Below are positions 42,629 to 60,878 of a DNA stretch of 64,000 nt, in pieces; the stretch's first letter is position 1; each line of letters opens with the position of its first letter. Source of the DNA: Rhodospirillales bacterium (GTDB lineage Bacteria > Pseudomonadota > Alphaproteobacteria > Rhodospirillales > Shumkoniaceae); NCBI GenBank assembly GCA_014859895.1, contig JACZKS010000147.1, positions 68,642 to 132,641 on the forward strand, read 5' to 3'. The position numbers and the translations under genes were made by a program. The notes below the pieces were generated by a model. That model was not told where the DNA came from. It worked only from the letters and a program-made list of their open reading frames with translations, and made no database searches.

Positions 42629-42664
42629 CCACGCTCCATTTGTGGGTTTCTTAGTGGGTAGAAA

Positions 42665-43988: not shown

Positions 43989-44315
43989 ATGATGTTCATT
44001 CTGGATGGTTACTGTAGTTTCAAGGATGCCATCGACAGGCTTGGGCGGGCCAAATTTCCGAACGAGTGGACGGGAGAGGAGTTCGATGCCGAACTGTTGC
44101 CCATCCCCTCCGAACGGGCAGGGCGGCTCGAGAGGGAGTTGGACGAGCTCTGCGGGCCATCGGAGAGGAGCCCCCATAGGTCCGGATCTAGATTGCTCTG
44201 CCCTAAAACACGGGCCGAGCTTTGGGCCGAACACAGCGTTCCGAAATACAAGGCTCAGCCTGTGGAGGGTCCCAACATCATCGAGCATTTCCCGAAGCCG
44301 GCCATGGGCGCCTAG
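43989..44315 (+). CDS. Hypothetical protein
   Basis: GGAGG RBS before ATG 43989; sits between the integrase and the next gene. Confidence 0.55.
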   Translation: MMFILDGYCSFKDAIDRLGRAKFPNEWTGEEFDAELLPIPSERAGRLERELDELCGPSERSPHRSGSRLLCPKTRAELWAEHSVPKYKAQPVEGPNIIEHFPKPAMGA

Positions 44316-44317
44316 CC

Positions 44318-44899: not shown

Positions 44900-45014
44900 A
44901 CCCGTTTAAAACCCAGAGCCTCTTGCGTGCAATTCCCAAACGCACGTGAATAATAACGGTCGCCTTATTCGAGGCGGCCAATTGGGGTCGCCTCAGAGTG
45001 CAGGAGACCCCAGA

Positions 45015-45242
45015 ATGTTCAAAACAAACTTAGCGCGTCAGGACGAGCCTGTAATCGATGGGCTTGCTGATCGCATCCTCGCGCCCATCCCAACCGCAGC
45101 CAGAGCACTCGGTATCGGCCGGACGCGCATGTACCAGATCATCGATGCCGGCAACGTCGAAAGCGTCAAGCTCGGCAAGCGCCACCTGGTCGTCGTGGAA
45201 TCGCTCCACGCATATGCGGATCGCCTGCGCGCCAAGGCCTAA
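45015..45242 (+). CDS. Excisionase/AlpA-like HTH DNA-binding protein
   Basis: IPTAARALGIGRTRMYQIIDAGNVESVKLGKRHLV. Confidence 0.88.
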   Translation: MFKTNLARQDEPVIDGLADRILAPIPTAARALGIGRTRMYQIIDAGNVESVKLGKRHLVVVESLHAYADRLRAKA

Positions 45243-45346
45243 GGCTGACCATCACCGTCGCCGTCGCCCAGGGCGTCGGTAACAGCATCACCTTCATTAT
45301 CACCTGCTTCGCGCTGCCCCACCCCTTACCTGACGGAGATTGCACC

Positions 45347-46411
45347 ATGGCCACCAACACCCTCGACCCCCGCAAGAGTTTCACCTCGACTCGGTTCAAG
45401 ACCTCGCGCTTCCCCGGGTTCGTGTCCCAGACCCTGGACACCACCGGCAACGTCGAGGAGGAGCCGGCCGCGGTCGCGTCCCCGCTACGTGGCGTCGGGC
45501 TTGGCCTTTCCACCGAGAGCGACGGGCCCGGTACCGATCCGGTTGGGAAGCAGTACACCGACATGAACCGTGACGAGATCGACAGGGAATATGAGAACCG
45601 CGCCCTCAATCAGGCCATGTTCGGGATCGGCATGCCGACGAACGCGGAGGAGCTGGGAAAGAAGGCTGTCGGGGTCTTGGCGAGTGCAACTCCTGTCGGC
45701 GCGATCGGTCCTTTGTCCAGGGGCCTTGATTATTTCACGAAGGAAGAACTGGACCGTGCCGAGCAGGCACTGTCGAAGCAAGAACTGAAGCGCGCCGCAG
45801 GAATTGCGGGAACACCGAATGCGGACAGGGACTTTGACCCCAGCGACATGACCGGTCTCGGCGTGACGGATTACGACAGGGCCGCCATCGAAGGTGATCC
45901 CACCGCGCGAGGCTACAACACGCCGCAACCCGACTACAGCGGTTCCGACGAAGCCGGCCCCAGTGTCGGGGACCCCAACGCGGGCACAACCACCGACACC
46001 GACGACAGCGGCCGTGGTGCCCAGGGTCCCAGCGAGGCCGATAGCGGTGGCACCTCGGCGAACTCCGACAACAGCCATGGCGGCAGCTCGGAGGGCCATG
46101 GCGGAGACCCGTCGACCTACCGCATGGGAGGCCCGATCCCCAACAGGGGTTCGCCAGAGATCGAACCGGTCCGCATCACCGCTCACGAAACCGAGCACGT
46201 CATGAACCCGGAGACGGTGCAGTTCTGGGGCCAGGACGTACTGGACGCCATGGGGGCCGTTGCCGAAGGCGTCGCCACGCCCGAGCAGGTCCAGCTCCTG
46301 CGCCAGATGATCAATCGGGGCCCCGCGGAATCGATATTGGAGGATCGGCCCAACCCGATGCAGGCCATGGGCTCGCCCCTGCGCGCCGCCGGGCGCGGCT
46401 ATCTCCAATAA
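45347..46411 (+). CDS. Acidic low-complexity protein with a tape-measure C-terminal-like motif
   Basis: GGAG RBS; D/S/G/T-rich linker followed by YRMGG...ITAHETEHVMNPETVQFWGQDVLDAM. Confidence 0.65.
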   Translation: MATNTLDPRKSFTSTRFKTSRFPGFVSQTLDTTGNVEEEPAAVASPLRGVGLGLSTESDGPGTDPVGKQYTDMNRDEIDREYENRALNQAMFGIGMPTNAEELGKKAVGVLASATPVGAIGPLSRGLDYFTKEELDRAEQALSKQELKRAAGIAGTPNADRDFDPSDMTGLGVTDYDRAAIEGDPTARGYNTPQPDYSGSDEAGPSVGDPNAGTTTDTDDSGRGAQGPSEADSGGTSANSDNSHGGSSEGHGGDPSTYRMGGPIPNRGSPEIEPVRITAHETEHVMNPETVQFWGQDVLDAMGAVAEGVATPEQVQLLRQMINRGPAESILEDRPNPMQAMGSPLRAAGRGYLQ

Positions 46412-46434
46412 CCACCGGCCGGAGGGTGTGCCCG

Positions 46435-46917
46435 ATGGCGACGACAAATCCGATATCGGAGAACGCTTACCTGCGCCTCTGCGACGGCTGGGCGCTCGGG
46501 TACGACAAAAACCAGTGGATCGTCCTGCGAGCCAAAAAGCGCGGAGATGAGACGTATTGGAACGCTGTGGGCTACATCGCCTCTACCAAGACGTTTCTCT
46601 GCCGTTATCTCCGCGAAAAAGGGGTCCAGATTTCAGACGGGGCTCAACAGGTCATCGACAACATGCCCGAGCGGTTCCTCGATTGGATCGCTGAGGTTCC
46701 GAACGGAGAAACTGTTGTCGATAGCCCCCGGCACCTCGCGGGTGACGCAGACGACGACAGCGACAACTCGCCTTATCCCCGCTCCGCAAAGGAAAGCGCC
46801 GACCGGGTGCAAACCGATCGGCGCCGAAATCTTTTAGCTATTCGCAACTCCCGGCCAGGAGAATCACGATGCGAACTTCTTACACCAAATCGACAACTTC
46901 CGCAACGTCGCCCCTGA
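46435..46917 (+). CDS. Hypothetical protein
   Basis: GGAGG RBS; globular N-terminal part (WALGYDKNQWIV...YWNAVGYIAS). Confidence 0.6.
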   Translation: MATTNPISENAYLRLCDGWALGYDKNQWIVLRAKKRGDETYWNAVGYIASTKTFLCRYLREKGVQISDGAQQVIDNMPERFLDWIAEVPNGETVVDSPRHLAGDADDDSDNSPYPRSAKESADRVQTDRRRNLLAIRNSRPGESRCELLTPNRQLPQRRP

Positions 46918-47144
46918 AGCTCGGCCGCCTGCCAAGCGATTCAAGCGATCCTTTCCACCTTCACGACAAAGCCAAGTTCGCCAAGCGCGCGCTCGAGGCC
47001 CTGAGCAAGTCCGCGTTCGAGGCCGGGGACCCGCAGACGATGCGTGCGGCAGGACAGGGCATTGTGCAGATCAACGAGCTGGCGTTGATGCACGGCTGGT
47101 GGGGCGCGCCCCTTCCTCGCAAGCGGGTACCGCAGGCATCGTGA
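46869..47144 (+). CDS. Hypothetical protein
   Basis: GGAG RBS; stop coupled (TGATG) to the next gene. Confidence 0.55.
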   Translation: MRTSYTKSTTSATSPLKLGRLPSDSSDPFHLHDKAKFAKRALEALSKSAFEAGDPQTMRAAGQGIVQINELALMHGWWGAPLPRKRVPQAS

Positions 47145-47368
47145 TGATCCGCCCCGAAGCCTTGAACGTTCTTCGCCTGCCGGTGACGCCAAAGGGTCGC
47201 CGGTGGCTGCGCGAGGCCGTGGTGCTTCTCCGAGGTTGGACCTTTCCGAACGGCGAACGGATCGAATTCTTCGATTGGGACCGGTTAGCTGAGTGCGGCG
47301 ATCTGGAACAATCCCGATGCCCCCAGGTGGCCGATGAGGCGCCGGCGCTCCAAAGGAGGCGGGGATGA
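47144..47368 (+). CDS. Hypothetical protein
   Basis: TGATG coupling upstream and ATGA coupling downstream. Confidence 0.5.
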   Translation: MIRPEALNVLRLPVTPKGRRWLREAVVLLRGWTFPNGERIEFFDWDRLAECGDLEQSRCPQVADEAPALQRRRG

Positions 47369-48147
47369 CTGGGCTGGCTTGGTTCCCGATGTATCCCCGG
47401 AACTGGCTGGTCGACACCCGCGTCCTTTCCGACCGGGCGCGCGGATTTTATGCGGACATCCTTTGCGCCATCTATGCCCGCGGCGGCCCCCTCCCGTTCA
47501 ACGGGCAAGAGGATGAGGACGAGTTGAGGAAACTCGGCGGCTATAAGCAGGTGCGGACCATGCGCGCTGTTCTGGATGAACTGCTTTCCAAGGAAAAACT
47601 CCATCTGATCAACGGCCATCTCGTGAACAATCGGGCGATGGAAGAACTGGCGATCGCCGCTAGGCACAGGGCCAATGGCGCGAAGGGCGGAAGGCCCCCG
47701 AAAGCGAATGGCGGATTTATTCCGAATAAATTGGATGTCTCGGGGGTTGGAATTGTGGAAAAACAATGGCCTAACCAAAACCCTACACAATCACATACAG
47801 TCTCTAAAGAGACTGCGCCCGGCGCCTATTCCGATGAGGAAAAGATCGAGGCCGACAGTCTCCGCGTCGTCATCTTTTCGACGTGCCGGAAGATCCTGAC
47901 TGAGCGGTACGCGATGGACGACGGAAAAGCCCGCCGCATTCTCGGCGGCCTCCGCAAAGATCATGCGGACGGTGAAATCGTCGACGCCTTCACCCGCTTG
48001 CAGGCCAAGCCCGACATTCAGGATCCAATTCCCTGGCTGAAGGCAGTCTTGAAGGCCGCGAAGCCCAACGGAACCGCCCGCCCGACGGCGCCGGCCATCG
48101 GTACGCCGGAAGCGGAACAGCGGGCTCGGGAGTGGGGGTACCGATGA
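47365..48147 (+). CDS. YdaU/DUF1376 family phage replication initiator
   Basis: WFPMYPRNWLVDTRVLS..ARGFY.DIL..., then NGAKGGRP. Confidence 0.85.
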   Translation: MTGLAWFPMYPRNWLVDTRVLSDRARGFYADILCAIYARGGPLPFNGQEDEDELRKLGGYKQVRTMRAVLDELLSKEKLHLINGHLVNNRAMEELAIAARHRANGAKGGRPPKANGGFIPNKLDVSGVGIVEKQWPNQNPTQSHTVSKETAPGAYSDEEKIEADSLRVVIFSTCRKILTERYAMDDGKARRILGGLRKDHADGEIVDAFTRLQAKPDIQDPIPWLKAVLKAAKPNGTARPTAPAIGTPEAEQRAREWGYR

Positions 48148-49436
48148 ACGACGATACCCACATCCTTGAGCCAATAGCGAAGCTGGTCAACGTCCAGGCC
48201 GAACAGATCGTCATCGGCGGGGTGATGCTGTACCCCCGCGTCTCGAAGCGGTTCACCTATCTCCGTTCCGACGATTTCGCGTTCGCGGGGCATGATCGCA
48301 TCTGGCGGGAAATCGACGCTCTGCGCCGGCAGGGGCAGGAGGCGTCACCAATCAGCCTGGCCCAACGACTGGTGGACGCCGGGGAGCTCGAGGATGTCGG
48401 CGGCGAAAAGTACATTCGCGAGTTGGCCAGCCAGGTTATCCCGAGCAGCTCGGCAGAGGCGGCGGCCGAACTCGTGCGCGATCTTTCCAACCGGCGCCGG
48501 CTGGTGGCCATCGCCGAAGCCGCGGCGCGTGACGCTGGCAATTTCGACCGCAGCGGGGATGAGCTCGTGGCCGCCTTGGTTCGCGATCTCCAGCGGCTCG
48601 CCGGCGACGGCGTGCGGCAGGGGCAATCGAAACGCGAAGTCGCCGAAGCCATCGTCGCCGGCCTCGGGAAAGCGCTGCCGTGTTACTCGACGGGAATTCC
48701 CAGCCTCGATGAAGCGATGGGAGGCGGCCTGTTCGCCGGGAAGCTCTACGGCGTCGCTGCCCGGAAGAAGGTTGGCAAGACGATCCTTCTGGGGAGCATT
48801 TCGCACAACCTCAACGCTGCCGGCGTGCGGCATGCCTTCATCGCCCTGGAAATGTCACCTGCCGAAATCGAGCAACGCAATGCGGCGCGGGCCGGCGGCT
48901 TCAACTCGATCCGCTTTCTCACGCGCGACGATCCGCACCTTGCCGAGCGCGTTGCCCAGTACGCCGTGACCACACCCGACGCGACGATCTACGAAGGCGC
49001 GCCCGGCGCCAGCTTCGAACAGATCCGCGCCATGGTTGCGCGCCACATCGCGGCCCGAGGCATCAAGGGCGTGGTGCTCGACTATTGGCAGCTGGTCGGC
49101 GGGAAGTCGCCGCGGGATTCCGAAGAATGGCACCTCCGTGAAGTTGCCCAATGGATGGCCGATACCGCGCGCCGCGAGGGCGTGTTCTTCTTGACGGCCG
49201 CGCAGGTTAACCAGACGGGGAACACCCGCGGCGGCGAAGGCCTGAAGCTCGCGTGTGACCAGTATTTCACGCTGCACCGCGAGAAGGAGGACAAGGGTGC
49301 ATGGCTCGAAATGGAGGAGAGCCGGCATACCATGTATCAGAACGTGGGGAACGCCGCGGCACCCGGCCTCTGGCTTGACCCTCACGGCCCGCACTTCCGG
49401 GATCCGGATCGAGCAAAAGCCGGAAGAGCGGCATAG
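48144..49436 (+). CDS. DnaB-like replicative helicase
   Basis: AEQIVIGGVM N-domain, ARKKVGKT Walker A, LEMS, VVLDYWQL Walker B and AAQVN; ATGA-coupled to DUF1376. Confidence 0.9.
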   Translation: MNDDTHILEPIAKLVNVQAEQIVIGGVMLYPRVSKRFTYLRSDDFAFAGHDRIWREIDALRRQGQEASPISLAQRLVDAGELEDVGGEKYIRELASQVIPSSSAEAAAELVRDLSNRRRLVAIAEAAARDAGNFDRSGDELVAALVRDLQRLAGDGVRQGQSKREVAEAIVAGLGKALPCYSTGIPSLDEAMGGGLFAGKLYGVAARKKVGKTILLGSISHNLNAAGVRHAFIALEMSPAEIEQRNAARAGGFNSIRFLTRDDPHLAERVAQYAVTTPDATIYEGAPGASFEQIRAMVARHIAARGIKGVVLDYWQLVGGKSPRDSEEWHLREVAQWMADTARREGVFFLTAAQVNQTGNTRGGEGLKLACDQYFTLHREKEDKGAWLEMEESRHTMYQNVGNAAAPGLWLDPHGPHFRDPDRAKAGRAA

Positions 49437-49437
49437 C

Positions 49438-49974
49438 ATGAAAGCCCTGGCCCTCGATATCAGCAGCAAGACGGGTTGGGCGTCTAGCGAGGGTCGGTCC
49501 GGCGTTCTGGACCTGTCCGGCCATCTTGATGACTTTGGTAAGCTGGGCTTCAATTTCCGCATGGACCTGGTCGACCTCTTCCGAGATACGACGCCCGACG
49601 TCGTTGTGATCGAAAGGCCCTTTGCGGCCGGAAAATCCGACCTCGCCAGACTGCCGGCCCATCTTGTATTCGTCGCGCATGAAACCGCCTTCGGCTGGAG
49701 AATTGCCCGCGCGGAAGTAACACCGGGGCAATGGAGAAAGGCAATTCTCGGCAATGGCGGGATGAAGCGCACCGAAGCGAAGAAGGCCGCCCTGGCATGG
49801 TGCCGCAGTCGGGGCTTATCCCCGCGTGACGACAACGAGGCCGACGCCCTGGCAATCCTGGCGTGGTGGGAACGGTTCGGCTGCGGACCGATCACGGGCC
49901 CAAGACGTGCGGAACGGGACGCCCTGGATACCGGAACAGCGGCCCGGCGCGGCGTAGATCTCGGCGCCGCATAG
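49438..49974 (+). CDS. RuvC-like Holliday junction resolvase (phage type)
   Basis: LALDISSKTGWA, VVIERPF and DDNEADALAIL acidic catalytic motifs. Confidence 0.85.
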   Translation: MKALALDISSKTGWASSEGRSGVLDLSGHLDDFGKLGFNFRMDLVDLFRDTTPDVVVIERPFAAGKSDLARLPAHLVFVAHETAFGWRIARAEVTPGQWRKAILGNGGMKRTEAKKAALAWCRSRGLSPRDDNEADALAILAWWERFGCGPITGPRRAERDALDTGTAARRGVDLGAA

Positions 49975-50159
49975 GGGTGTTCGGCGGGGGCACCGTCGCC
50001 GGGCGCAATCAGGTTCATCCTGGTTTAGTACGGTGGTGGGTCGCGCGCACCAAGATTGGCGGATTTCTGAGGAATATGATCTCCGGCGCGGACCAATCAG
50101 GTTCATAAGGGTTTAGTCTCGCGCATAGGGTTTTCCTTCATATTGCTTTAGTTTCGCGG

Positions 50160-50429
50160 ATGCGCTTCCACTTCAAAAAACTTCAATCCCGAACGGATTT
50201 GAAAGAACCCGCCACGGGCCGATACGAGGCTATCGAAATTGGTTGCCGTTGCGAAGAAATCCTGGAGAATTTGGACGAGGTAAGTGTTCGGATGTGGATC
50301 GCCTACCACGACGTCGACGGCGCGGAAATAAGGGGCGATGACCGTAAGGCCGTGGCACGCCTGCAACGAGGGAGTGAGAAACTCGAGAAGCTTGCCGGAG
50401 GATTTCCCGGCGCAGTTCGCGATATCTGA
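50160..50429 (+). CDS. Hypothetical protein
   Basis: 89-aa charged ORF with no recognised motif. Confidence 0.4.
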   Translation: MRFHFKKLQSRTDLKEPATGRYEAIEIGCRCEEILENLDEVSVRMWIAYHDVDGAEIRGDDRKAVARLQRGSEKLEKLAGGFPGAVRDI

Positions 50430-50444
50430 CCGAGGGGTTACAAT

Positions 50445-50777
50445 ATGCGGACGGTTCGTGAAGGTCATTCAAACGGCGGCACCTACATTCGCGCTTGGCA
50501 TGCCCTCGTCGCCCTGTTCATCCTGGCGCTAGTTGCTTCAGGTTATGTCCAGTTTGCCACTCGCGGCCTCATCTTGGGACCTCGTTCGTGGCCTGTCAGT
50601 TTAAGTTTGATCGCTGGTGGAGCCTTAGCCCTTATCGCGCTGCCGGCACTCGTAGTCATCCCTTGGCGATTGATCCAAAGGCGCTTGGGGACGATAACGG
50701 ATACGCCTGTTGTGGTTGGCGTCATCGTTTTCATCCTGTGCGCGATTTTCCTGCTCAAGGGGGCAACGATGGGCTGA
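50445..50777 (+). CDS. Small membrane protein (3 predicted TM segments)
   Basis: Three hydrophobic stretches. Confidence 0.55.
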   Translation: MRTVREGHSNGGTYIRAWHALVALFILALVASGYVQFATRGLILGPRSWPVSLSLIAGGALALIALPALVVIPWRLIQRRLGTITDTPVVVGVIVFILCAIFLLKGATMG

Positions 50778-51216
50778 CCAGGGCGACCGCAGCCGAAACC
50801 GAAGGTGAACCGGTAGGCGTTGTCGTCGGCCATGCTTTCTGCTTGCTGATCCGAAGAAGCAGGACCCAGCCACTTTTCGACTACACGAAATCCACGCCGC
50901 GGCGACAATGCCGTTCTGACGGCAAACGCGACGGGCACACGAGAGGAAGGCAGATCGGGCCTCGGTGTGAAGGGTTTACTACCTTCGTACGTTCATCTCC
51001 CCGAAAATTAGCCTCTGCTGGCCCTGCCCGCCGTTCCCTTCCCCAACTCTCCCAGGCACCAGCTTCCGGCTCGATCGCCAATGGCGTGGTCGTGTTGACG
51101 AGGCGCGGACCGACCCCGTGGATGTTTCGGCCTTGTGGGCCGAAGATCCCGGAGATGCGTTCTCGGAAATTTGTGCCGTCAGCCCCGCTATCGATCATTC
51201 AGGGTTCGGTGTCCGA

Positions 51217-51852
51217 TCATTGTTGGCGCCAGGCCGCCGAAATCGCCTTTGCTTCTTGCAGTTGCGCCGGGTTCAAGGCAGGTCCAATTTCGGCTCTCAG
51301 CCGTGTCGCGGAATCCAGTCCGGCATAGCTTGCGGAATCAGCCCATCCATAAGCACGGGTCTTGTCGCGGCTTAGCCCGATGCCCTTCCAATAGAGGTAC
51401 GAAAGAAGGGCCTGGGCTGGTGGGCAGCCCTGCAGCGCGGATCGACGAACATACTCGGCGCCCAACGCGCTTTCGTGCGTCCGCAACAAGATCTCGCCGC
51501 CCCATGCAAACTGCGCCAGCGGAACGCCTTTCGCAGCATATTCCGAGAGCACCGCGCTCCGCTCGCCGGCGGGCAATGTTGAGCCGGGGTTGTACACCTT
51601 GTCGATGGCGTTCTGAGCCATCCCCACCTCGACGAGCTCAGGCGTAGGCAAGTCTTTGAACGGCCGGTCCGAGTAGCGCCTGTAGATCACACTGCTGAAA
51701 TGGCCTTCTTTCTCTGCCGCTGCCGCCTCCATCGATCTGTTGAGATCATCTACGAAAAGGCGAAGGTCGGTATGGCGGATTGCGCTTTGGGACGCCGTTT
51801 CACATCCGCCAACTGCCAGGAGACTGAGGAATAGAATGAGGTAACGTTTCAT
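51217..51852 (-). CDS. Sel1-repeat lipoprotein
   Basis: MKRYLILFLSLLAVGGC lipobox; SALQG.PPAQALLSYLYWKGIGLSRDKTRAYGW Sel1 repeat. Confidence 0.8.
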   Translation of the reverse strand: MKRYLILFLSLLAVGGCETASQSAIRHTDLRLFVDDLNRSMEAAAAEKEGHFSSVIYRRYSDRPFKDLPTPELVEVGMAQNAIDKVYNPGSTLPAGERSAVLSEYAAKGVPLAQFAWGGEILLRTHESALGAEYVRRSALQGCPPAQALLSYLYWKGIGLSRDKTRAYGWADSASYAGLDSATRLRAEIGPALNPAQLQEAKAISAAWRQQ

Positions 51853-52236
51853 AGCGCCGACCTTCCAATCTGCGTCCACGAACCGGCTTCCACTGCCTCG
51901 CGTGCGCGTGCACGCGCGAGGGCTACGTACAAAGAACACGGGTCCCGGCACCTGGTCGACCCGCCTACGTCAGGCCGTTGTTAGGGAGAACGCTAAGCTC
52001 TGAAGTGTCGATCCGCTCGCCTAATCCCTCGGGAGGTGCCGTCACGGACGCATATGCCTCGTTGAGGGTCATGACGCGCATAGGGCGTCTTCCACCGGGA
52101 AATTCTACGGCGGCACGTGCCCAAAAAAAAGCCCTAGCCGAAAACGATATTGGAAGGGGGCATAACCCCCTCACTGGTTCGAGGAGACAACGAACCGTGA
52201 TAGCCTCTCAGGGTATCAGTAGCGGGAGACACGATC

Positions 52237-52728
52237 ATGGAGGCAAAGCCCTACAAGGTGATGAGCTACCGATTTTCGGTTGAGTTGAAGATCCCGGCGC
52301 ATGTCCAATTTCCCACAGACAAGATGATCGGAAACCTGCTCGCGGCCATCGATGCATATGACGATCGGAATCGCTTTTTCGGGGGGCGACGATTGGAGGA
52401 CGGCCAATCCTGTATCATCGAAAAAGGCGTTGGGCTGGATGGGATAGGGGTTACGGACGAGCAGTGGCCGCGTCTCGACGAGGAACCCGAAGAACGCCCC
52501 TTTGAGATGGAATCGGAAAAAGACCTGGACGAGGCCATCGACGTTAGCTGTCGGAGCGACGATTTTCAGGAACTGCTCGAGGAAACGCGGGCGAATATGT
52601 GGGATGCCTATTACGACGTGCGCCGGGCCGAAACCAGGAACCAGCTTCGCGGGGCCTTAACGCGTCTACGGCGCAGGCGGAGCGAATTGACAAAACTGAT
52701 CGGCGGCATCCCGGGTAGGCCCGGTTGA
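52237..52728 (+). CDS. Hypothetical acidic protein
   Basis: 163-aa ORF preceded by a GGGAG RBS. Confidence 0.55.
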   Translation: MEAKPYKVMSYRFSVELKIPAHVQFPTDKMIGNLLAAIDAYDDRNRFFGGRRLEDGQSCIIEKGVGLDGIGVTDEQWPRLDEEPEERPFEMESEKDLDEAIDVSCRSDDFQELLEETRANMWDAYYDVRRAETRNQLRGALTRLRRRRSELTKLIGGIPGRPG

Positions 52729-52729
52729 T

Positions 52730-52753
52730 AAAAGGCCCCGCGCGAGGCGGGGC
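52730..52753 (-). terminator. Rho-independent terminator for the Tat-signal gene
   Basis: GCCCCGC-GCGAG-GCGGGGC hairpin with an A-run on its left (U-tract on the minus strand). Confidence 0.65.
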
Positions 52754-52786
52754 AGGAAGAAAAGATTTTGTCGTTAACCTTTGCGG

Positions 52787-53500
52787 TCAGGCGGCCGCGG
52801 CGTCTGACGGATACGGCGTGCGGGCCATCCTTTCGCAGTCTATCAGTGCGGACATTAGCGCCGCATCGTCCATGCTCTTGCACTCGCCCTTCAGGTAGCT
52901 GGCGCGCTGTTCAGGCTCAAAGAGGGTGTTCGTCCCGAGCCGCAGTTTGACCGCGAATCCGGCGGGACCGGCAGCCGGCGTAGCGATGATCTTTCGCAAG
53001 ATCTCCTCAGCCCGGTTTCCGAGGGCGTCGATCCTGCGGGCGAGCTCCACGGCGCGGGGATGCTTTTTGGCGGCGACGCATTCGGCTTCGTATTTGTCGA
53101 ACGCAACCAAGGTCTCTTGGTGTCTGGCCGCGATTTCCTCGGGCGCCCCGGCCCGCCATAGCGTCGGGGCCGTGCCGGTGAAGAACCGGTCGATATCGTG
53201 GCGCGTCGTGAAAGGAGCCCTGGGATCGTCGGGCAAAACCTCCCATCCGGGCTCATAAAAATAGCCCGGCCAGTAAAGGATGTCGGGCCGCTTTGGCATC
53301 GTGATGGCGTCATACTCGTTTTGCACGGTGCACGTTTCTCCCGTCGTGTCCCAATACTCTCGTTCCAGGGCGATCAGCGTGGCGTCCGAGTTCGGCGCGG
53401 CCGCCGCCGGGAATAACGCGCCAGCCGTGACGGCTGCGGCAGCGCTGGCCGCCAGCATGCCGGAGTATTTGAGCGCATCACGACGTGAAATCTTAGACAT
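52787..53500 (-). CDS. Hypothetical protein with twin-arginine-like N-terminus
   Basis: MSKISRRDALK...AAAA; helical body (DATLIALEREY, ATPAAGPAGFAVKLR); AGGAG RBS. Confidence 0.75.
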   Translation of the reverse strand: MSKISRRDALKYSGMLAASAAAAVTAGALFPAAAAPNSDATLIALEREYWDTTGETCTVQNEYDAITMPKRPDILYWPGYFYEPGWEVLPDDPRAPFTTRHDIDRFFTGTAPTLWRAGAPEEIAARHQETLVAFDKYEAECVAAKKHPRAVELARRIDALGNRAEEILRKIIATPAAGPAGFAVKLRLGTNTLFEPEQRASYLKGECKSMDDAALMSALIDCERMARTPYPSDAAAA

Positions 53501-53522
53501 GGAGCTTCTCCTTGCTAGGCTG

Positions 53523-53575
53523 TGATACCTGAAGTATCATATATTCTCAGATCAATTGCAATACCTGAGGTATCA
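53523..53575. promoter_or_regulatory. Two 17-bp palindromic operators (53523-53539, 53559-53575)
   Basis: TGATACCTGAAGTATCA and CAATACCTGAGGTATCA between the divergent Tat-signal and XRE genes. Confidence 0.75.
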
Positions 53576-53577
53576 TT

Positions 53578-53814
53578 TTGATCACAAGCGAACAGGTCAG
53601 GGCCGCCCGGATGCTCCTGCGGTGGGAGCAGAAGGACTTGGCCGGCAAGGCAGGAGTGTCCCTGCCGACGATCAAGAGGCTGGAAACGCAGCCCGGCGAA
53701 TTGCGGGCGCATAGTTCGACGCTCAGCGCCATCACCAGGGCGATCGAAGCCGCCGGCGTCATATTCATCCCCGAAAATGGCGGCGGCCCGGGAGTCAGGT
53801 TGAAAAAGGCCTAA
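53578..53814 (+). CDS. XRE-family HTH transcriptional regulator
   Basis: QVRAARMLLRWEQKDLAGKAGVSLPTIKRLE...EAAGVIFI...GGGPGVRL. Confidence 0.92.
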   Translation: MITSEQVRAARMLLRWEQKDLAGKAGVSLPTIKRLETQPGELRAHSSTLSAITRAIEAAGVIFIPENGGGPGVRLKKA

Positions 53815-53884
53815 ATCCAGGTAGAACCCGGACCCGTTGCGCGGTACTCTTTCTGCGTGCGCTGCCGCGTGGAAAGGGGGATCC

Positions 53885-54811
53885 GTGGTGGACGCCTGGG
53901 GTCTTCGATTCTTCCTGCTCGATGAAAACGACGGGCTTTGGCGCGTGTCGCAGCGCGTCGCTCAAGAGCTGATCACTGGCCGAACTCGCCTCCCCCAATT
54001 TGCGAGCAAACGCGTCCGCGCGGTTGACGCGTATGTCACTCTCGACGCGCGCAAGCCAGTGAGGTTGGAATCGGCTCGCGGGTCATACTGGAATTTCGAC
54101 AAGTCCGGGAGGTGGTTTTTGCCCAGGAGCGCCCGTGGGTTGATCATGGATACGATCGACTTCGCGCCGCCAAAGGAAGGCAACGTCGTCCCGTTGAGCG
54201 AATTCAGCAAGCGGCTGCTCAAATCACGGGAGCGCTGGAAGCTTTCCCCCCACGAAATCACACTGATCGTTCACGCCATCTGGCCAGAGCAGGCTGGGCG
54301 GCCGACCAAGCTACCCCCGTTCATTCAAGGTAACCGAGAGAGGAAGCCGCCGATGACCTACGAAGCCAAGAACGCGCGGAGCGAGTTGTCGGATCACGTC
54401 TTCAAGGCGAGCCTGATTATCGACCGCCTATCTCCGCCATCTCTCAAGGCCTTGGTCGCGGATCTCGACGACCAAGAGCCTGACGACATGCTCGAGCTAT
54501 GGCGGGGCATCGCGGATGCCTGCCGCCGGAAATTGGCGATCGAGCAGGCACGGCGGCGGGACAAAGGGGAATGGCGCGCCGAGGTCGAGGTTATCAGGTG
54601 GGAGGACGGCCGTCACGGGAGGGTAGGCCAGTCGGTCTTCAGCGAGAGCGTCCAGACGACTAGCCGAAAGGCAGCCGTCAAGGCGGGCCGCGAGCTGTTG
54701 AAGAAGCACGCCGACCATTTCGACACAGACTGCACGGTCGAGGTCAACCTCCTCACCGGAATTGAATGGGAGAGGCGCGGCGCGCCGGATAGTACCAGTG
54801 AGACGGAATAG
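53885..54811 (+). CDS. Hypothetical multi-domain protein
   Basis: Long ORF; GTG start re-called after GGGGG; no recognised motif. Confidence 0.6.
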   Translation: MVDAWGLRFFLLDENDGLWRVSQRVAQELITGRTRLPQFASKRVRAVDAYVTLDARKPVRLESARGSYWNFDKSGRWFLPRSARGLIMDTIDFAPPKEGNVVPLSEFSKRLLKSRERWKLSPHEITLIVHAIWPEQAGRPTKLPPFIQGNRERKPPMTYEAKNARSELSDHVFKASLIIDRLSPPSLKALVADLDDQEPDDMLELWRGIADACRRKLAIEQARRRDKGEWRAEVEVIRWEDGRHGRVGQSVFSESVQTTSRKAAVKAGRELLKKHADHFDTDCTVEVNLLTGIEWERRGAPDSTSETE

Positions 54812-54942
54812 TGGCGTAGTGGGGCCGCGCACAGGGCTGTTACCCCCGTCAACGTTCAATCATGGTTATATAATCCGCCTCGACTTTCGCCCTCGAACAG
54901 CGCAATAATTTCCTAAACTAAAAATCGTAATGGGGGGATGTC

Positions 54943-55182
54943 ATGAGACGGATGCGGGTAGTGCTGGCCGTTTTCGTGCTGCTGGGCGCCTTTGTTCCAT
55001 CTGCATCGTCCATCCAAACGCCGCTGCCGCAATCGATTTGCGAACAGATCATTCGGAGCGGTGCGCCGGTAGACGAGATTGCGAAAAGCGGTTGTTGCTC
55101 GTGGCACGGCGGCGTCTGCGGATGCAGGGGCGGGCGGGCAGTCTGTTGCGACGGTGCACTCAGCCCATCGTGCGGCTGCTGA
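54943..55182 (+). CDS. Small secreted Cys-rich protein (GCCSWHGGVCGC type)
   Basis: Signal peptide; KSGCCSWHGGVCGCRGGRAVCCDGALSPSCGC. Confidence 0.8.
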   Translation: MRRMRVVLAVFVLLGAFVPSASSIQTPLPQSICEQIIRSGAPVDEIAKSGCCSWHGGVCGCRGGRAVCCDGALSPSCGC

Positions 55183-55230
55183 GTACAGACCCTAGTTTCC
55201 GATTGTGGGTCACTTTTTGGGGGGGAGAAA

Positions 55231-55548
55231 ATGCGGCTGTTCCTTGCCGCCTTGTGCGGATTGATGCTGGCATCACTCATCAGCGTCAGCCCGGCAACGG
55301 CTCAATCTCGCAATTTGCTCGAAACCACCGAACAGGCACGGCAGCGCCATTCAGCCGAGCGATGGAACCAGTATGAACAGCGCGGCTACCGGGCGCCGCT
55401 TGGGGGTTACCAAGAGCGGCTCGGCGATCCGGCCCCCCGTGGGACCGAACGGCCTGGCTACACGTCACCTCAGCCCTATGGATCTGGAAACAGCAGTCCG
55501 GGGTGGGGTAGCAGCCAGTCACAGGATCGACACTGGGGCACCAGATAG
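55231..55548 (+). CDS. Small secreted protein, Q/G/S/R-rich
   Basis: Signal peptide ending in ATA-Q; GGAGA RBS. Confidence 0.65.
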   Translation: MRLFLAALCGLMLASLISVSPATAQSRNLLETTEQARQRHSAERWNQYEQRGYRAPLGGYQERLGDPAPRGTERPGYTSPQPYGSGNSSPGWGSSQSQDRHWGTR

Positions 55549-55612
55549 CCGCCTTCGGGTCGCGCGCGACGCCTGTACGCGCGGAAGCCTGTTCCAGGGT
55601 GTCGGAGTAGCC

Positions 55613-56302
55613 ATGAGCACCACAACTGCCCAGCGCCTTCTTTTCTGGTCCTTCGTTGCGGCGTGCCTTTGGCCATCATTGTTGCTGGCGCACGGCGGCG
55701 GCCTCGACGCGATGGGCTGCCATCACAACAGGAAGGCTGGCGGCTACCACTGCCACCGCGGCCCGCTGGCCGGTCAGTCGTTCGCGTCCAAGGAAGACGC
55801 CGCCCGTGCCCTGCAGCGAGCCAGCCAGCCGCAACCGTCGGCGCGCTCATCCACACCCCCGCCCCCGGCCGCCACGCCGGCGCCTGCCGTGCTTTCCGGC
55901 GTCGCCTCAGTGATAGACGGCGACACGCTGGAAATCCACGGCCAGCGGATCCGGCTTCACGGCATCGACGCGCCCGAGTCCGCCCAGTTGTGCAAAGACA
56001 CGCGCGGGAAGGATTACCGCTGCGGCCAGCAGGCCGCTCTTGCGCTCGCCGATCGCATCGGCCGCCGGCCGATCGAGTGCGAAAAGCGCGACGTCGACCA
56101 TTACAAGCGGATTGTCGCCGTCTGTCGGCTGGGTTCCGAGGTCCTGAACGCCTGGCTCGTTTCCGAGGGGTGGGCAATGGCCTATCGGCATTACAGTCGT
56201 GAATATGTGCCGCAAGAGACCCAAGCGCGGAAGGTAGGTCGCGGCATTTGGCGAGGGGAGTTTGCACCGCCGTGGGATTGGCGCAATAGAGCCGGCCGTT
56301 GA
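55613..56302 (+). CDS. Secreted thermonuclease (SNase-like) with N-terminal YHYH-like His/Cys domain
   Basis: AHGGGLD..GCHHNRK.GGYHCH, Pro-rich linker, VIDGDTL...RIRLHGIDAPE, DHYKRIVA and GIWRGEF..PWDWR. Confidence 0.9.
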   Translation: MSTTTAQRLLFWSFVAACLWPSLLLAHGGGLDAMGCHHNRKAGGYHCHRGPLAGQSFASKEDAARALQRASQPQPSARSSTPPPPAATPAPAVLSGVASVIDGDTLEIHGQRIRLHGIDAPESAQLCKDTRGKDYRCGQQAALALADRIGRRPIECEKRDVDHYKRIVAVCRLGSEVLNAWLVSEGWAMAYRHYSREYVPQETQARKVGRGIWRGEFAPPWDWRNRAGR

Positions 56303-56389
56303 TTTCCCGAACCCGTTTGGCGCGCCTCTACACAATGAAGGTCGCGCTCCGGGGGGGTGCGATATAGTGAAAATACGCAGTTGACTTAA

Positions 56390-56866
56390 ATGGCAACAGC
56401 CTTACATATTGCGAACCTAGGTGGCCTGATCCGATGGGAACTCGATCCCGTCGACAGGCGACAGGTGGAACGATTGCTGTTTCTTACGCCCGAAATGGAA
56501 CGTTGGATGCGCGACGTCCTACCACTCGAACCTGCTGACCGCGGTCGCGACATATCTCCTATCGAACAGGTCGTGTCTGTATTCGACCAGATAGCCGGCG
56601 ATCCGGCTTTTCGCGGAGTTGGCGATTTCGTCCGGCTGCATCCACAGTATCAGGGCGTCTACGAAGTGAAGGTGACAGACGTCAGGGTCTTCGGGTGGTT
56701 CCCGGCATGCAGGAACTTCATTGCCTGTTCCGGCGAAATGAAGAGGCGAACAAAAGGGAACTTTCGGCTCGTGAGGGAACACGTACGAGCAGCTATCCGT
56801 TGCCGTGAACGTCTGCACTTGGACGAACCGAAATTTGTGATGGGGGCACTACATGAGATCCTATAG
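56390..56866 (+). CDS. Putative RelE/HigB-fold toxin
   Basis: VRLHPQYQGVYEVKVTDVRVFGWF resembles the RelE beta core; overlaps the HTH gene. Confidence 0.6.
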   Translation: MATALHIANLGGLIRWELDPVDRRQVERLLFLTPEMERWMRDVLPLEPADRGRDISPIEQVVSVFDQIAGDPAFRGVGDFVRLHPQYQGVYEVKVTDVRVFGWFPACRNFIACSGEMKRRTKGNFRLVREHVRAAIRCRERLHLDEPKFVMGALHEIL

Positions 56867-57230
56867 GCCGCATATCGACGCTCGCCGCAAGAAGTTCGTC
56901 GATTTGATCGGACGTGTGCATCTCGAAATTGGGAATGCTGTCCACGATTGGACGACGGCGGAGAACGTATCCAAGACGGACCTTGCGCGAATTCTTGGCT
57001 GCAACAAGTCGGTCCTGAGCCGTCGCCTGAACGGCACAGCGAACCTGACACTGAAAACGATCGCCGACTTGGCATGGGCAACTGGACGCGATATCGACTT
57101 CGCTCTTCCCAAGGCGGCCCATCGGAACGTTCCCGTTCAAGCACCTCGCCCAGTTGTAACCCGGGTGAGCGCAACAACAACGACAACCGAGGCGCCGACA
57201 ACGCGGGTGGTTACCCTGGTGCACCGGTGA
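56853..57230 (+). CDS. XRE/HigA-like HTH antitoxin with about 40-aa Thr/Val/Pro-rich C-terminal tail
   Basis: SKTDLARILGCNKSVLSRRLNGTANLTLKTIADLAWA, then PVQAPRPVVTRVSATTTTTEAPTTRVVTLVHR. Confidence 0.85.
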   Translation: MRSYRPHIDARRKKFVDLIGRVHLEIGNAVHDWTTAENVSKTDLARILGCNKSVLSRRLNGTANLTLKTIADLAWATGRDIDFALPKAAHRNVPVQAPRPVVTRVSATTTTTEAPTTRVVTLVHR

Positions 57231-57667
57231 TGTCTGAGCGCTACGCATGGTGCCTTTTTTGCGATGATATCCGAGCAGAGCTCGGAGGAAAGTACTCGCT
57301 GATGGGACTATGGGGCCCCCGGTTCGCCTGCCCGGCCTATCCCTTCACTCTGCCGTCTCTTGGCTTGGCGGTGTATTTTCGCACCGCTCCAGACGAAGAT
57401 ATACGAAGCTTGAAGATATGGCTCGAATCTCCGAGCGATCAAAAAGCTGAATTCCAGGTAAATATGGAGGATGTTCCAGGCGATCTCCCGGAGGAGTTTC
57501 CATCCCGCGTCACCATCCTCCATCTTCGTATGTTCAACTTCGTGATCCAGGCTCCTGGATGGATGAAGGCTTTCGTTGAAGCGGACGGCGAACGCTATTA
57601 TGCCGGTGCCGTTTACTGGATGCGGCAAGAGGCGCCCGGAGAACAGGGAGAGCGGAAGGCATTGTAA
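57230..57667 (+). CDS. DUF6941-like beta-sandwich protein
   Basis: AWCLFCDDIRAELGGKYSLMG N-terminal signature; TGATG-coupled to the HTH gene. Confidence 0.75.
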   Translation: MSERYAWCLFCDDIRAELGGKYSLMGLWGPRFACPAYPFTLPSLGLAVYFRTAPDEDIRSLKIWLESPSDQKAEFQVNMEDVPGDLPEEFPSRVTILHLRMFNFVIQAPGWMKAFVEADGERYYAGAVYWMRQEAPGEQGERKAL

Positions 57668-57696
57668 TCGGCATTCTCTCCCACAGAGTAAAATCT

Positions 57697-58191
57697 ATGT
57701 GTGGTCGACTCAGCCAGAAGCATGCCCAAATGGCCGCCGACAGCCAAGCATGCGAAAATGCCGACAGGCAGCCCAGCGTCTATATCGCCTGCACGCGTGC
57801 CAAGGGCTACCGCCAGGCCAACCATGAAGACGTGGGGCCGGCAGGGGCGTTGGTTTATCGGTGGGTCGATCTTCGTCGCAACAACGCGAAGGCCTATGAC
57901 GATCTCACCGCCTGCCAATCCAGCGCGCCCCAGGAAACCATCGCGCGCACCCTGGCGGTTGAAACCTGCATGACGCAGCGGGGATACCTCCTCTGGACGG
58001 GTGGCGAGGTCGACGATTACGAGCGGCTGGCCGGCGGCGCCCGGGATGTTTACGGCGCCTGCATGATCGACGTCGATAGGAAGCTTCCTCTAAGCCAAGT
58101 CAGGCCGAGCGAACTAGACGGGCGCCGCCAGCTGCGCGACGCTTGCATGTCGGGCCTGGGTTATGCCGGCGGACAGCGGCCGCACCTTTGA
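57697..58191 (+). CDS. Protein with three tandem two-Cys repeats ending in C..xxGY
   Basis: QAC...ACTRAKGY, TAC...TCMTQRGY and GAC...ACMSGLGY. Confidence 0.6.
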   Translation: MCGRLSQKHAQMAADSQACENADRQPSVYIACTRAKGYRQANHEDVGPAGALVYRWVDLRRNNAKAYDDLTACQSSAPQETIARTLAVETCMTQRGYLLWTGGEVDDYERLAGGARDVYGACMIDVDRKLPLSQVRPSELDGRRQLRDACMSGLGYAGGQRPHL

Positions 58192-58209
58192 TACCTATCG
58201 TCGGGGAGG

Positions 58210-58614
58210 ATGCGCATGAGATGGGCAGGCTTGATTGTGCTGGCCGCCGTAATTGCGTGGCCCGCATTGGCCGAAGAGACCGCCGGGCGGAAGGATTACA
58301 CTTCGGTTCGGGGCATGACCGAGTTTGAGGCACTCCCAGGTGGCCACGACCTTATGGCCATCTACTTCCATGCCGTGGACGATGCGCTCGGCTACGGGAA
58401 TTTCTATCTGACGGCACGGGGAGGCGCCCCGTTTTTCTGCCCCCCTGCGAAGTTGGCCCTGAACGCAGGAAATTACAGGAAGATCCTGCTCGACGAGGTG
58501 GCCCGCCTACGAAGGCTCAAACCGGCCAACAAGGAATGGCAGGACAAAATCGACCGCTCGAACATAGGGATGATCTTGGTGGATGCCCTGTATCGGACCT
58601 TTCCATGCAAATAG
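58210..58614 (+). CDS. Secreted Rap1a/Tai4-like immunity protein
   Basis: Signal peptide (ALA-E); FCPP and terminal ALYRTFPCK two-Cys pattern. Confidence 0.6.
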   Translation: MRMRWAGLIVLAAVIAWPALAEETAGRKDYTSVRGMTEFEALPGGHDLMAIYFHAVDDALGYGNFYLTARGGAPFFCPPAKLALNAGNYRKILLDEVARLRRLKPANKEWQDKIDRSNIGMILVDALYRTFPCK

Positions 58615-58690
58615 GGGCCAGGACACCGGATGCTGATCCGCTGACGGCGCCCTCTGTTGCAGCAGGATGGGGCGCCCTATCTTTTCCAGC

Positions 58691-59377
58691 ATGTGCGGGC
58701 GTTTTTCCCAGGTACTGACGTGGCGCGAGTTGCATGCGCTCTACAGCCTGACCGGGCCGGAGCGCAACGTCGTGCCGCGCTACAACATCCGGCCAACGAA
58801 CCAAGTGTGGATCGTGCGCGCCGGGGAAGACGACGGCCGCGAGCTGGCGTCGGCCGTGTGGTGGCTGGTGCCGCCGTGGGCCGACAAGCCGGATCAGCGC
58901 TTCGCCATGTTCAACGCCCGGGCTGAAACCCTGTCGGAGAAAAAGGCATTCGCCGGCCCGTTTCGGTCGCGGCGCTGCCTCATCCCGTTTACCGGCTGGT
59001 ACGAGTGGCGAGCCGAGGGCAAGGCCAAGCAGCCCTATTACCTGGCGCTGCGCTCCGGGCCCTTCGCGGTGGCCGGGCTGTGGGAGATCAGCCTGCGCGC
59101 GGCGGCGCCCATCGTCTCGTGTACCGTCGTCACGGTGCCGGCGAACGACCTAGTGGCGAAGTACCATCCGAAACAGCGCATGCCGGCCATCCTCAAGCCC
59201 GAGGATTGGGGCCCATGGCTCGATACCAAGACGGTCACGCCGGAGTTCGCGGCCAACCTGCTGGCGTCATGGCCGAGCGAGGAGATGACCGTGCACGCCG
59301 TGGATCCGCGCCACGTCAACGCGCCCATCGATACCCCGCTGGCCATCGAGAAGTGGAAGACGCTGCCGGCGCGGTAG
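58691..59377 (+). CDS. SOS response-associated peptidase (SRAP/YedK/HMCES family)
   Basis: MCGRF N-terminus, RYNIRPT, FNARAET, RRCLIPFTGWYEW and HPKQRMPAIL. Confidence 0.93.
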   Translation: MCGRFSQVLTWRELHALYSLTGPERNVVPRYNIRPTNQVWIVRAGEDDGRELASAVWWLVPPWADKPDQRFAMFNARAETLSEKKAFAGPFRSRRCLIPFTGWYEWRAEGKAKQPYYLALRSGPFAVAGLWEISLRAAAPIVSCTVVTVPANDLVAKYHPKQRMPAILKPEDWGPWLDTKTVTPEFAANLLASWPSEEMTVHAVDPRHVNAPIDTPLAIEKWKTLPAR

Positions 59378-59385
59378 ACTGAACT

Positions 59386-60639
59386 TCACATGATCCGCGG
59401 CGGGCCATCGCCCGGGTTGCTCTCTGCCGTTGCGCAATAGCTTGCCCAGTCATTCATCAAGCAACTGCGCTTCTCGTACAACTTGCCGCGCTGGTATGCC
59501 CTCTTGACCTTGTCGGGAATAGTGTGGCCCAGGGCCATTTCTGACACTTCCTCAGGGTATTTCGTACATTCCGTGGCCCAAGTCTTTAGGGTGGCTCGAA
59601 AGCCATGATCCGTGATATCGGCGTACCCAAGGGTGTCGAGCAATTTCAGGAGATTCGACGACGATATCCGCTCGTTTCGACTCCCTTGCGAAAAGACAAG
59701 CCGATCCCCGGAATCGGCCATTCCGATTTCATCCCTTACATCAACGACGTCAAGAATATCGATCGCGCCGTCGGAGAGCGGCACCAGGTGTTCAACCTTC
59801 GACTTCGTGCGTTCCGCGGGGATCGTCCACATTTTCTTGTCGAGATCTATTTCCTTCCAGGTAGCCAGCGTCACTTCGCTGGCACGCACACCGGTCAAAA
59901 GCTGGAATTCAAGCGCCAGCCCAACGACGCTTGGCTCCAATCGCAGCGCAACCAACAACGGTCCGACGCTGTCATAGTGAAGGGCCGGGTGATGCTTGGT
60001 CTTTTTGATCTTCGTGGGAGCCCGCAGGACGGAGGCAAGATGCTTTTCCCACGCGGCCGGGTTGCTTCTGTCTTTGAGATCGTTGGTCGCATATGCGTAG
60101 GCCAATATGGATTCGATCCGACCCCGCAGGCGATGGGCCGTCACCGGAATGGTGGACCAGATCGGACGGAGGCATTTCAGGACGTGCCCGGTCCTAATTT
60201 CGTCGACGCTCATATCCCCGAGCACAGGATAGGCGTACGTTTCCAGTGTGCTCTCCCACTGTGCGGCATGCTTGTCGTTTGCCCAGTCGGCCTTGTGATC
60301 CACGATATAGGCCGCCGCCCATTGCCGAAACGGCTTATTCTTTTCCTCCTCCTCCGCAGTTTCCCGATCGGTGCTTTCGCGCGCCTCGATCGGGTCGATT
60401 CCCCTGCGGACAAGCCTTTCGCAATCTTTCGCTTTCTCGCGGGCGTCATCCAGAGAATATCCCTTTAGCGATCCGAGCCCCATTTCCCGCGCCTTGCGGT
60501 GCAGCATGAAACGGTAAATCCACGATTTCGTGCCAAAGGCGCTGACTTGGAGCCACAAGCCTCCACCATCTCCATATTTGCCCCGACGATCGACGGTGGC
60601 GACGAATCGGTCCGACAACTTATGAATGCAGCGTGCCAT
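59386..60639 (-). CDS. P4/CP4-type tyrosine integrase (integrase 2)
   Basis: DGGGLWLQVS...KSW and MGLGS; catalytic R (VRASE), HGFR, LGH and Y (RAYQRG) intact. Start re-called at MARCIHKL. Confidence 0.95.
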   Translation of the reverse strand: MARCIHKLSDRFVATVDRRGKYGDGGGLWLQVSAFGTKSWIYRFMLHRKAREMGLGSLKGYSLDDAREKAKDCERLVRRGIDPIEARESTDRETAEEEEKNKPFRQWAAAYIVDHKADWANDKHAAQWESTLETYAYPVLGDMSVDEIRTGHVLKCLRPIWSTIPVTAHRLRGRIESILAYAYATNDLKDRSNPAAWEKHLASVLRAPTKIKKTKHHPALHYDSVGPLLVALRLEPSVVGLALEFQLLTGVRASEVTLATWKEIDLDKKMWTIPAERTKSKVEHLVPLSDGAIDILDVVDVRDEIGMADSGDRLVFSQGSRNERISSSNLLKLLDTLGYADITDHGFRATLKTWATECTKYPEEVSEMALGHTIPDKVKRAYQRGKLYEKRSCLMNDWASYCATAESNPGDGPPRIM

Positions 60640-60788
60640 AGAAAAAGCCCTCCTGTTGGGAAAATTGCCCACGCACAGGTCGGAATTTCCAACGCAGGAT
60701 TACCGCGCTTCGGTTTGTAGGCTGGTTTGTGGGCTAAAGAATATTGTATTTTATAATGCGTTGAAAATAAACGCTTTTATAAAATAGT

Positions 60789-60878
60789 TGGCGGAGGGGG
60801 TGGGATTCGAACCCACGGTACCCGCAAGGGTACAACGGTTTTCGAGACCGTCCCAATCGACCACTCTGGCACCCCTCC
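60789..60878 (-). tRNA. tRNA-Ser(CGA), 90 nt, encoded CCA
   Basis: GGAGGGGTGCCAGAGTGGTCGATTGGGACGGTCTCGAAAACCGTTGTACCCTTGCGGGTACCGTGGGTTCGAATCCCACCCCCTCCGCCA: long variable arm, GTTCGAAT T-loop. Confidence 0.97.

Follow-up and report, generated by a model that had tools for sequence, protein, structure and literature searches.

Three-part toxin–antitoxin–chaperone (TAC) systems, which have become a reference case for the bacterial sensing of phage proteins, are to our knowledge known only with SecB-like chaperones, and a three-gene locus in the genome of a Rhodospirillales bacterium raises the question of whether a protein unrelated to SecB can take the third place. The locus lies in a stretch of 64,000 nucleotides (hereafter the window; positions 68,642 to 132,641 of contig JACZKS010000147.1, assembly GCA_014859895.1) and consists of a candidate toxin gene (gene 1), a gene for a candidate antitoxin with an XRE-type helix-turn-helix (HTH) domain (gene 2), and a gene for a DUF6941 protein (gene 3). 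Our analysis of this trio suggests a so far undescribed form of the three-part TAC design that does without SecB. Gene 1 (56390..56866, + strand; ATG at 56390, TAG at 56864–56866) encodes 158 aa, and its start is supported by an N-terminus, MAT..., that is conserved among relatives. Gene 2 (56853..57230, + strand; ATG at 56853–56855, TGA at 57228–57230) encodes 125 aa and overlaps gene 1 by 14 nt, and gene 3 (57230..57667, + strand; ATG at 57230–57232, TAA at 57665–57667) encodes 145 aa and joins gene 2 in a TGATG at 57228–57232. An earlier note, made from the sequence of the window, had described three coupled genes here, and the gene boundaries, both overlaps and the quoted peptide motifs (GVYEVKVTDVRVFGWF, residues 89–104 of gene 1; PVVTRVSATTTTTEAPTTRVVTLVHR, the C-terminal end of gene 2; and MSERYAWCLFCDDIRAELGGKYSLMG, the N-terminal start of gene 3) were all found in place. 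Scans for promoters, operators, and terminators gave no signal above shuffled expectation.

Do these three genes form a unit? Hidden Markov models of the trio were derived from its copy in the window and from two trios of metagenomes. A genome scan identified 21 loci with relatives of gene 1 that share 26–37% identity, all of them in Alphaproteobacteria or in metagenome-assembled genomes (MAGs) of unclassified Proteobacteria. An HTH gene overlaps the gene 1 relative at all 21 loci and a DUF6941-like gene lies directly behind it at 20 of them; the triad suspected from the window alone is thus conserved in other genomes. This synteny and the frequent ATGA coupling of the last two genes led us to reject chance adjacency of the three genes. 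No family of flanking genes is common to more than three of the 21 loci, and at L004 and L012 the trio stands alone between acnA and ccmA. Because the order of the three genes is kept while the flanking genes differ, the trio is an autonomous mobile cassette. The layout is that of a type II toxin–antitoxin (TA) system, in that a toxin-candidate gene overlaps a downstream HTH gene and both are kept as a unit between unrelated flanks, and we see hardly any room for doubt that this is a conserved mobile three-gene cassette of the TA type. At the sole genome locus that lacks a DUF6941 gene (L023:4320-4994), an extended HTH frame contains IVYLEDIRRH, which resembles the motif of gene 3 and suggests that the third gene has been damaged, has been frameshifted, or has decayed.

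What is the third protein, if it is not SecB? Gene 3 matches the Pfam domain model DUF6941 (PF22091) with 36.4 bits against a cut-off of 27 (E value 7.9e-9; residues 8–122 on model positions 3–116 of 125), and the match was reproduced in a search of the source genome alone (E value 2.9e-8). The model was recorded in 4 of 401 genomes of the class, which is probably a lower bound given that the source genome is itself listed with 0. The PHROGs match of gene 3 is phrog_31406, a family of unknown function, and a word-based search with gene 3 returned only the self-match, relatives being obtained through synteny and motif scans. Five AlphaFold2 models, computed from 21 syntenic relatives, agree on a ten-strand beta-sandwich with a predicted local distance difference test (pLDDT) score of 86.7–89.3. 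Compared with the PDB by Foldseek, this predicted fold matches UNC119, PDE6-delta, and immunoglobulin V domains at template modeling (TM) scores of 0.4–0.48, which we read as a generic immunoglobulin (Ig)-like resemblance; its closest counterparts in BFVD are uncharacterized phage proteins (TM 0.65–0.70). A SecB-like fold was therefore rejected, because the model is all-beta and Ig-like and neither Pfam nor the Foldseek search of the PDB gave a SecB match, and the assignment of gene 3 to the DUF6941 beta-sandwich proteins made in the earlier note stands. The most conserved part of the protein is a nearly invariant N-terminal hairpin, FCDDIRxExxGKxxLxG, in which G26 is invariant and the conservation of C11, D13, R15, E17, and G20 reaches at least 90%. 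The strongest Pfam scores for DUF6941, about 74 bits, belong to two genomes of one genus (L028 and L029), where the domain gene adjoins a gene for a PfkB-like kinase.

We then asked whether DUF6941 proteins are tied to the gene 1 family or occur behind other toxins as well. Of the four genomes with a Pfam match to DUF6941, one (locus L030) encodes HicA (30.6 bits), then HicB (49.5 bits), then DUF6941, and another (L031) encodes a ParE_toxin protein (30.1 bits), then an HTH protein, then DUF6941; the loci of the other two have no toxin–antitoxin pair. A scan for the FCDDIRxE motif, based for the metagenomes on a 9-sequence alignment, identified at least 531 metagenome loci and 65 loci on viral contigs. 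The toxin class was tallied at the nonredundant loci with enough upstream sequence: among 48 metagenome loci, 30 carry a ParE-like protein in the first position, eight a distant branch of gene 1, four a member of the gene 1 family and six another protein, and the corresponding numbers among 57 viral loci are 38, four, 12, and three. Six of 31 members of the ParE-like group match ParE_toxin at an E value of 0.01 or less, and the distant branch aligns with the gene 1 family over 151 columns in hhalign (probability 93%, E value 3e-7). DUF6941-type third genes were also found behind a HipA_2-like kinase (34.6 bits; L101:1266-3450) and behind DUF4160 (41.3 bits; L097:43-1461). The HipA-like frame at the former locus, 407 aa long and of low complexity in its second half, may be an open reading frame (ORF) called too long. 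The stop codon of the antitoxin and the start codon of DUF6941 overlap as ATGA in 33 of 43 and in 42 of 54 loci.

In a maximum-likelihood tree of 125 DUF6941 partners, copies linked to the same toxin class group together, with 11 label changes versus 45.5 in shuffles, and those linked to HipA and DUF4160 are found within the ParE- and gene 1-type clades. This nesting implies exchanges of the toxin upstream of one and the same DUF6941 lineage. The design extends to cultured viruses, as the temperate Pseudomonas phages MD8, phi2, MR13, and MR15 each encode a DUF6941 homolog. In MD8 (L185; KX198612.1, 34130-35419) a trio of ParE-like toxin, HTH protein, and DUF6941 protein lies directly downstream of cI, and its genes gp52-gp51-gp50 are annotated as HigB-like toxin, HigA-like antitoxin, and putative Ig-domain protein. 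In phi2, MR13, and MR15, too, the trio comes immediately behind cI. MD8 and phi2 resemble the trio of the window in gene order, in the FCDDIRxE motif of the third protein and in residing on a temperate mobile element, but differ in that their toxin belongs to the ParE-like family rather than to the gene 1 family.

Which kind of protein does gene 1 encode? Gene 1 reaches no Pfam cut-off and matches nothing in NCBIfam, PADLOC, or PHROGs. A word-based search yielded nine relatives only; a profile search, by contrast of scale, collected 624 clusters (at 50% identity) with an E value of 0.001 or less, 450 of them at 1e-10 or less, and nearly all family members have a length of 155–170 aa. Not one of 123 aligned relatives matches a Pfam model at an E value of 0.001 (best value 0.0049), the curated families RelE, HigB, ParE_toxin, and Gp49 included; Gp49 is touched by a single relative at an E value of 0.077. 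Since no meaningful Pfam match exists among the 123 members and the family comprises 624 clusters, we place gene 1 in a large family that has no name. In the alignment of the 123 members R99 is invariant and K94, D97, F101-G-W-F104, F110, R139, L144, and P147 are conserved in at least 90%, which gives a near-invariant core motif K94-x2-D97-x-R99-x-FGWF, together with R139, and a conserved C-terminal LxLDEPKF.

The best AlphaFold2 model of gene 1, computed from a 10-sequence alignment, has a pLDDT of 78.6 and a predicted TM score of 0.80. It divides the protein into an N-terminal extension of about 55 residues (residues 1–56), modeled as a small alpha/beta unit, and a core (residues 57–141) of helix–helix–four strands–helix, an order of elements that is consistent with the RelE-superfamily fold. 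The top Foldseek match in the PDB is HigB of S. pneumoniae (6af4; probability 0.99, E value 0.02, TM 0.59 on the target), further matches include RelE of T. thermophilus (2khe), RelBE2 (3g5o), HigB, YafQ, and ParE, and almost all the better matches are RelE-superfamily toxins. The RelE/HigB-like core with a long N-terminal extension that had been proposed from the sequence finds its support in one confident AlphaFold2 model and in Foldseek; we regard such a core as likely but not secure, the link being purely structural and not visible at the sequence level. In two family members, P0013 (293 aa) and P0147 (281 aa), the gene 1 homolog is joined in-frame to an HTH antitoxin with a tail, and these are either natural toxin–antitoxin fusions or artifacts of read-through, gene calling, or frameshifts.

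One could also suppose that gene 1 is no toxin and that the three genes serve mobile elements as a small cassette for regulation or immunity, in which an HTH regulator is accompanied by two accessory proteins and no growth arrest occurs. Such a cassette would agree with the lack of a sequence link between gene 1 and any toxin family and with the derivation of the RelE-like fold from one model. It is difficult to reconcile with the ParE, HicA, HipA_2, and DUF4160 toxins that fill the same slot in homologous trios, with a toxin-first layout and overlapping HTH gene that is the pattern of HigBA, and with the predominance of RelE-superfamily toxins among the better structural matches, and we judge it very unlikely. 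It is from the fold resemblance, and from the slot that recognized toxins fill in homologous trios, that we infer a toxin role for gene 1.

The antitoxin candidate comprises a conserved N-terminal helix region (residues 1–35), an HTH domain and a tail. The HTH domain matches Pfam HTH_3 with 24.7 bits (cut-off 23; residues 38–82) and HTH_26 with 23 bits, and NCBIfam gives nothing significant, its match to HigA being weak (TIGR02607, E value 0.044). Compared with PADLOC, the HTH domain matches PDC-M64B/C (E value 1e-8); because PADLOC has no match for gene 1, for gene 3, or for the corresponding genes of the ParE class, we do not assign the trio to PDC-M64. The tail (residues 86–125, PKAAHRNVPVQAPRPVVTRVSATTTTTEAPTTRVVTLVHR; 57108..57227, + strand) is a low-complexity sequence and a candidate partner-binding element comparable to the chaperone-addiction (ChAD) regions of TAC antitoxins. 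In 38 distinct relatives the tails are 32–59 aa long (mean 43, here 40), consist to 57% of S/T/P/A/G/N/Q and have no conserved sequence or motif. Within gene 2, conservation is lowest in this tail, which is presumably disordered. Thus, the XRE HTH followed by a low-complexity tail of about 40 residues was read correctly from the window, and the beta-prone tail end does not hold up as a feature of the family.

An added segment is also present in the antitoxins of the other classes. ParE-class antitoxins carry theirs at the N-terminus, where an S/T-rich region that includes a short run of hydrophobic residues is followed by a conserved helix and then by an HTH at the C-terminus, and from these relatives the extension of the MD8 antitoxin is expected to be N-terminal, unlike that of the window trio. 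HicB at L030 has a C-terminal tail of 46 residues. In the loci that we inspected, DUF6941-partnered antitoxins carry an added disordered segment, which is C-terminal in HicB and in the gene 1 class; these TA pairs, unrelated in other respects, have no further feature in common.

How does the trio compare with systems that are already known? In SecB-type TAC systems (HigB1-HigA1-SecB(TA) of M. tuberculosis, Rv1955-1957; HigBAC of E. coli; and CmdTAC) the genes for toxin, antitoxin, and third protein are likewise coupled, the antitoxin has a variable disordered extension, to which the tail of gene 2 may correspond, and the systems are often found on prophages and mobile elements. The third protein is also reused behind several unrelated TA families, and the modular use of DUF6941 matches that of SecB in this respect. 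The differences are that the third protein of the trio is predicted to be an Ig-like beta-sandwich, whereas SecB has an alpha/beta fold, and that the extension of DUF6941-linked antitoxins is N- or C-terminal and poor in aromatic residues. With the two-gene HigBA systems (S. pneumoniae, 6AF4; P. vulgaris) the trio shares a toxin gene upstream of an overlapping XRE HTH antitoxin gene, and the gene 1 core is similar to HigB/RelE in predicted fold; it departs from them in the extra N-terminal module and the conserved LDEPKF motif of gene 1, in the lack of detectable sequence similarity to the Pfam families RelE, HigB, ParE, and Gp49, and in the retained third gene. In the library that was searched we found no paper that mentions DUF6941, PF22091, or PDC-M64, and in the TAC reviews and primary papers that we found the third component is always SecB-like.

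A template for the mechanism of the trio is provided by Mets et al. (bioRxiv 10.1101/2024.02.24.581848), in whose description the ChAD is disordered and varies more than any other part of the antitoxin, contributes beta-strands to the chaperone, and faces competition from a phage protein. By analogy, gene 1 would be the toxin and, given its RelE/HigB-like predicted fold, most likely an mRNA endonuclease that depends on translation. Gene 2 would act as antitoxin and autorepressor, its conserved N-terminal helix probably holding the toxin. Gene 3 would be an obligatory third partner that most likely binds the disordered extension of the antitoxin, with the contact probably made through the invariant N-terminal beta-hairpin FCDDIRxExxGK. 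Its binding would control the stability or availability of the antitoxin, which is the role of SecB-like chaperones in TAC systems, and a competing ligand, for example a phage protein, could then free the toxin. The proposed binding of gene 3 to the tail draws on the modular co-occurrence, the translational coupling, and the shared antitoxin extension. We also infer the toxicity and RNase activity of gene 1, the neutralizing part of gene 2, and a role of the trio in phage defense. That the trio is a self-contained, horizontally mobile, three-part type II TA cassette, serving addiction or defense, with a TAC-like mechanism appears to us about equally likely to be right or wrong.

Several results speak against this proposal. 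Only one of the five AlphaFold2 models of gene 1 is confident, the remaining four having a pLDDT of 40–45, and the Foldseek matches of the confident model have modest E values (0.02–1) and TM scores of 0.5–0.64 on the target. Sequence profiles of the gene 1 family with 10 and with 123 members found no match in the PDB, and hhalign found none between the gene 1 family and the ParE-like group. Aromatic residues make up only 4% of gene 2-type tails, unlike in SecB-type ChADs. A strand-like tail end occurs in six of 38 relatives compared with 3.7 expected, and 296 of 2,000 shuffles scored as high; this difference is not significant, and a conserved C-terminal strand as a family feature of the tails was rejected. 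Two-gene versions of the gene 1 or ParE-like families, which would serve as controls for the tail, were not among the matches of the one plasmid search that was made; all matches of both families, including one Rhodoferax plasmid and one Neisseria record, are full trios. Finally, the DUF6941 loci L028 and L029 have no recognizable TA pair nearby, which indicates that DUF6941 genes also exist outside the third position of TA modules.

The scarcity of aromatic residues bears on a simpler scheme as well, in which genes 1 and 2 form an ordinary two-part TA system, the tail of gene 2 itself neutralizes the toxin as in RelB, ParD, and Phd, and gene 3 acts elsewhere, by binding the toxin, tuning the repression of the operon, or providing an unrelated moron function. 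Many type II antitoxins do neutralize through a disordered region, and the tail here, unlike the known ChADs, is not rich in aromatics. The MD8 locus has moreover been treated as a two-gene HigBA system with its third gene undiscussed (PMC8508860). A neutralizing tail is hard to square, however, with good conservation of the toxin and so little of it in the tail, where gene 2 is most variable; a toxin-binding gene 3 would have to recognize RelE-fold, HicA, HipA-like, and DUF4160 proteins alike; and gene 3 is kept at 20 of 21 loci and coupled to the antitoxin gene by ATGA. We consider this two-part scheme unlikely.

The tail-binding role proposed for gene 3 has also to be weighed against one in which gene 3 is a sensor or adaptor for proteins of an invader, for instance those of a capsid or tail, whose binding would make it activate or release the toxin; the antitoxin would be stable alone and its tail would not be the resting ligand. 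Ig-like sandwiches are typical of binding modules, and the trio is often met in prophages beside cI and in the vicinity of TIR genes. In a Rhodobacteraceae MAG (L020:4877-6637) the third-gene slot of a gene 1-type trio is occupied by a protein of 587 aa in which DUF6941 is fused to about 400 residues of TPR repeats. Such repeats are a typical protein-binding or sensor module, and this relative hints at a protein-binding or sensor role. A sensor of this kind leaves unexplained why each DUF6941-linked antitoxin family examined has a disordered extension and why antitoxin and gene 3 are almost constantly coupled in translation, and we take it to be rather unlikely. On a mobilizable plasmid of Rhodoferax antarcticus (L187; NZ_CP019242.1, 81255-85083) the trio is flanked by genes for a TIR-domain protein and an ImmA/IrrE metallopeptidase, a setting that is like a defense island. 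The TPR fusion, the prophage and TIR settings, and the position of the window trio on a tRNA-Ser island also count in favor of our main proposal.

If gene 3 does hold the antitoxin in the manner of a TAC chaperone, a structurally unrelated third partner is in the same modular use as SecB and the design has evolved at least twice. The DUF6941/phrog_31406 domain would gain a function and an unnamed toxin family of more than 600 sequence clusters would be defined, in a design whose breadth in our survey reaches from at least 531 metagenome loci and 65 viral contigs to cultured temperate Pseudomonas phages. The cassette in E. coli and lysogens of MD8 and phi2 offer tractable test systems. In its widest form, the proposal is that, besides SecB and with no relation to it, DUF6941 proteins form another class of partner that holds antitoxins and has been recruited repeatedly, by the gene 1 family, ParE-like toxins, HicAB, HipA-like proteins, and DUF4160; that the resulting three-part switches abort infection when a phage competitor frees the toxin; and that gene 1 founds a new large family of RelE-fold translation toxins. 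We advance this wider form tentatively and lean somewhat toward doubting it.

In the window, the trio is carried by an integrated element of 18.3 kb (42496..60802) with a 14-bp direct repeat at its two ends (42496-42509 and 60789-60802), a sequence that occurs twice versus 0 expected. The integration site is a tRNA-Ser(CGA) gene (60789-60878, - strand), next to which lies a tyrosine integrase gene (59386-60672, - strand) identified by its integrase domains, and the trio is located about 3 kb from the integrase end. Between the trio and the integrase gene, two ORFs (57697-58191 and 58210-58614) match no Pfam family and are followed by a gene for an SOS-response-associated peptidase (SRAP; 58667-59377, 202.7 bits). 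On the other side of the trio, the same island encodes a secreted-looking protein with a staphylococcal-nuclease domain (55373-56302, 48.2 bits).

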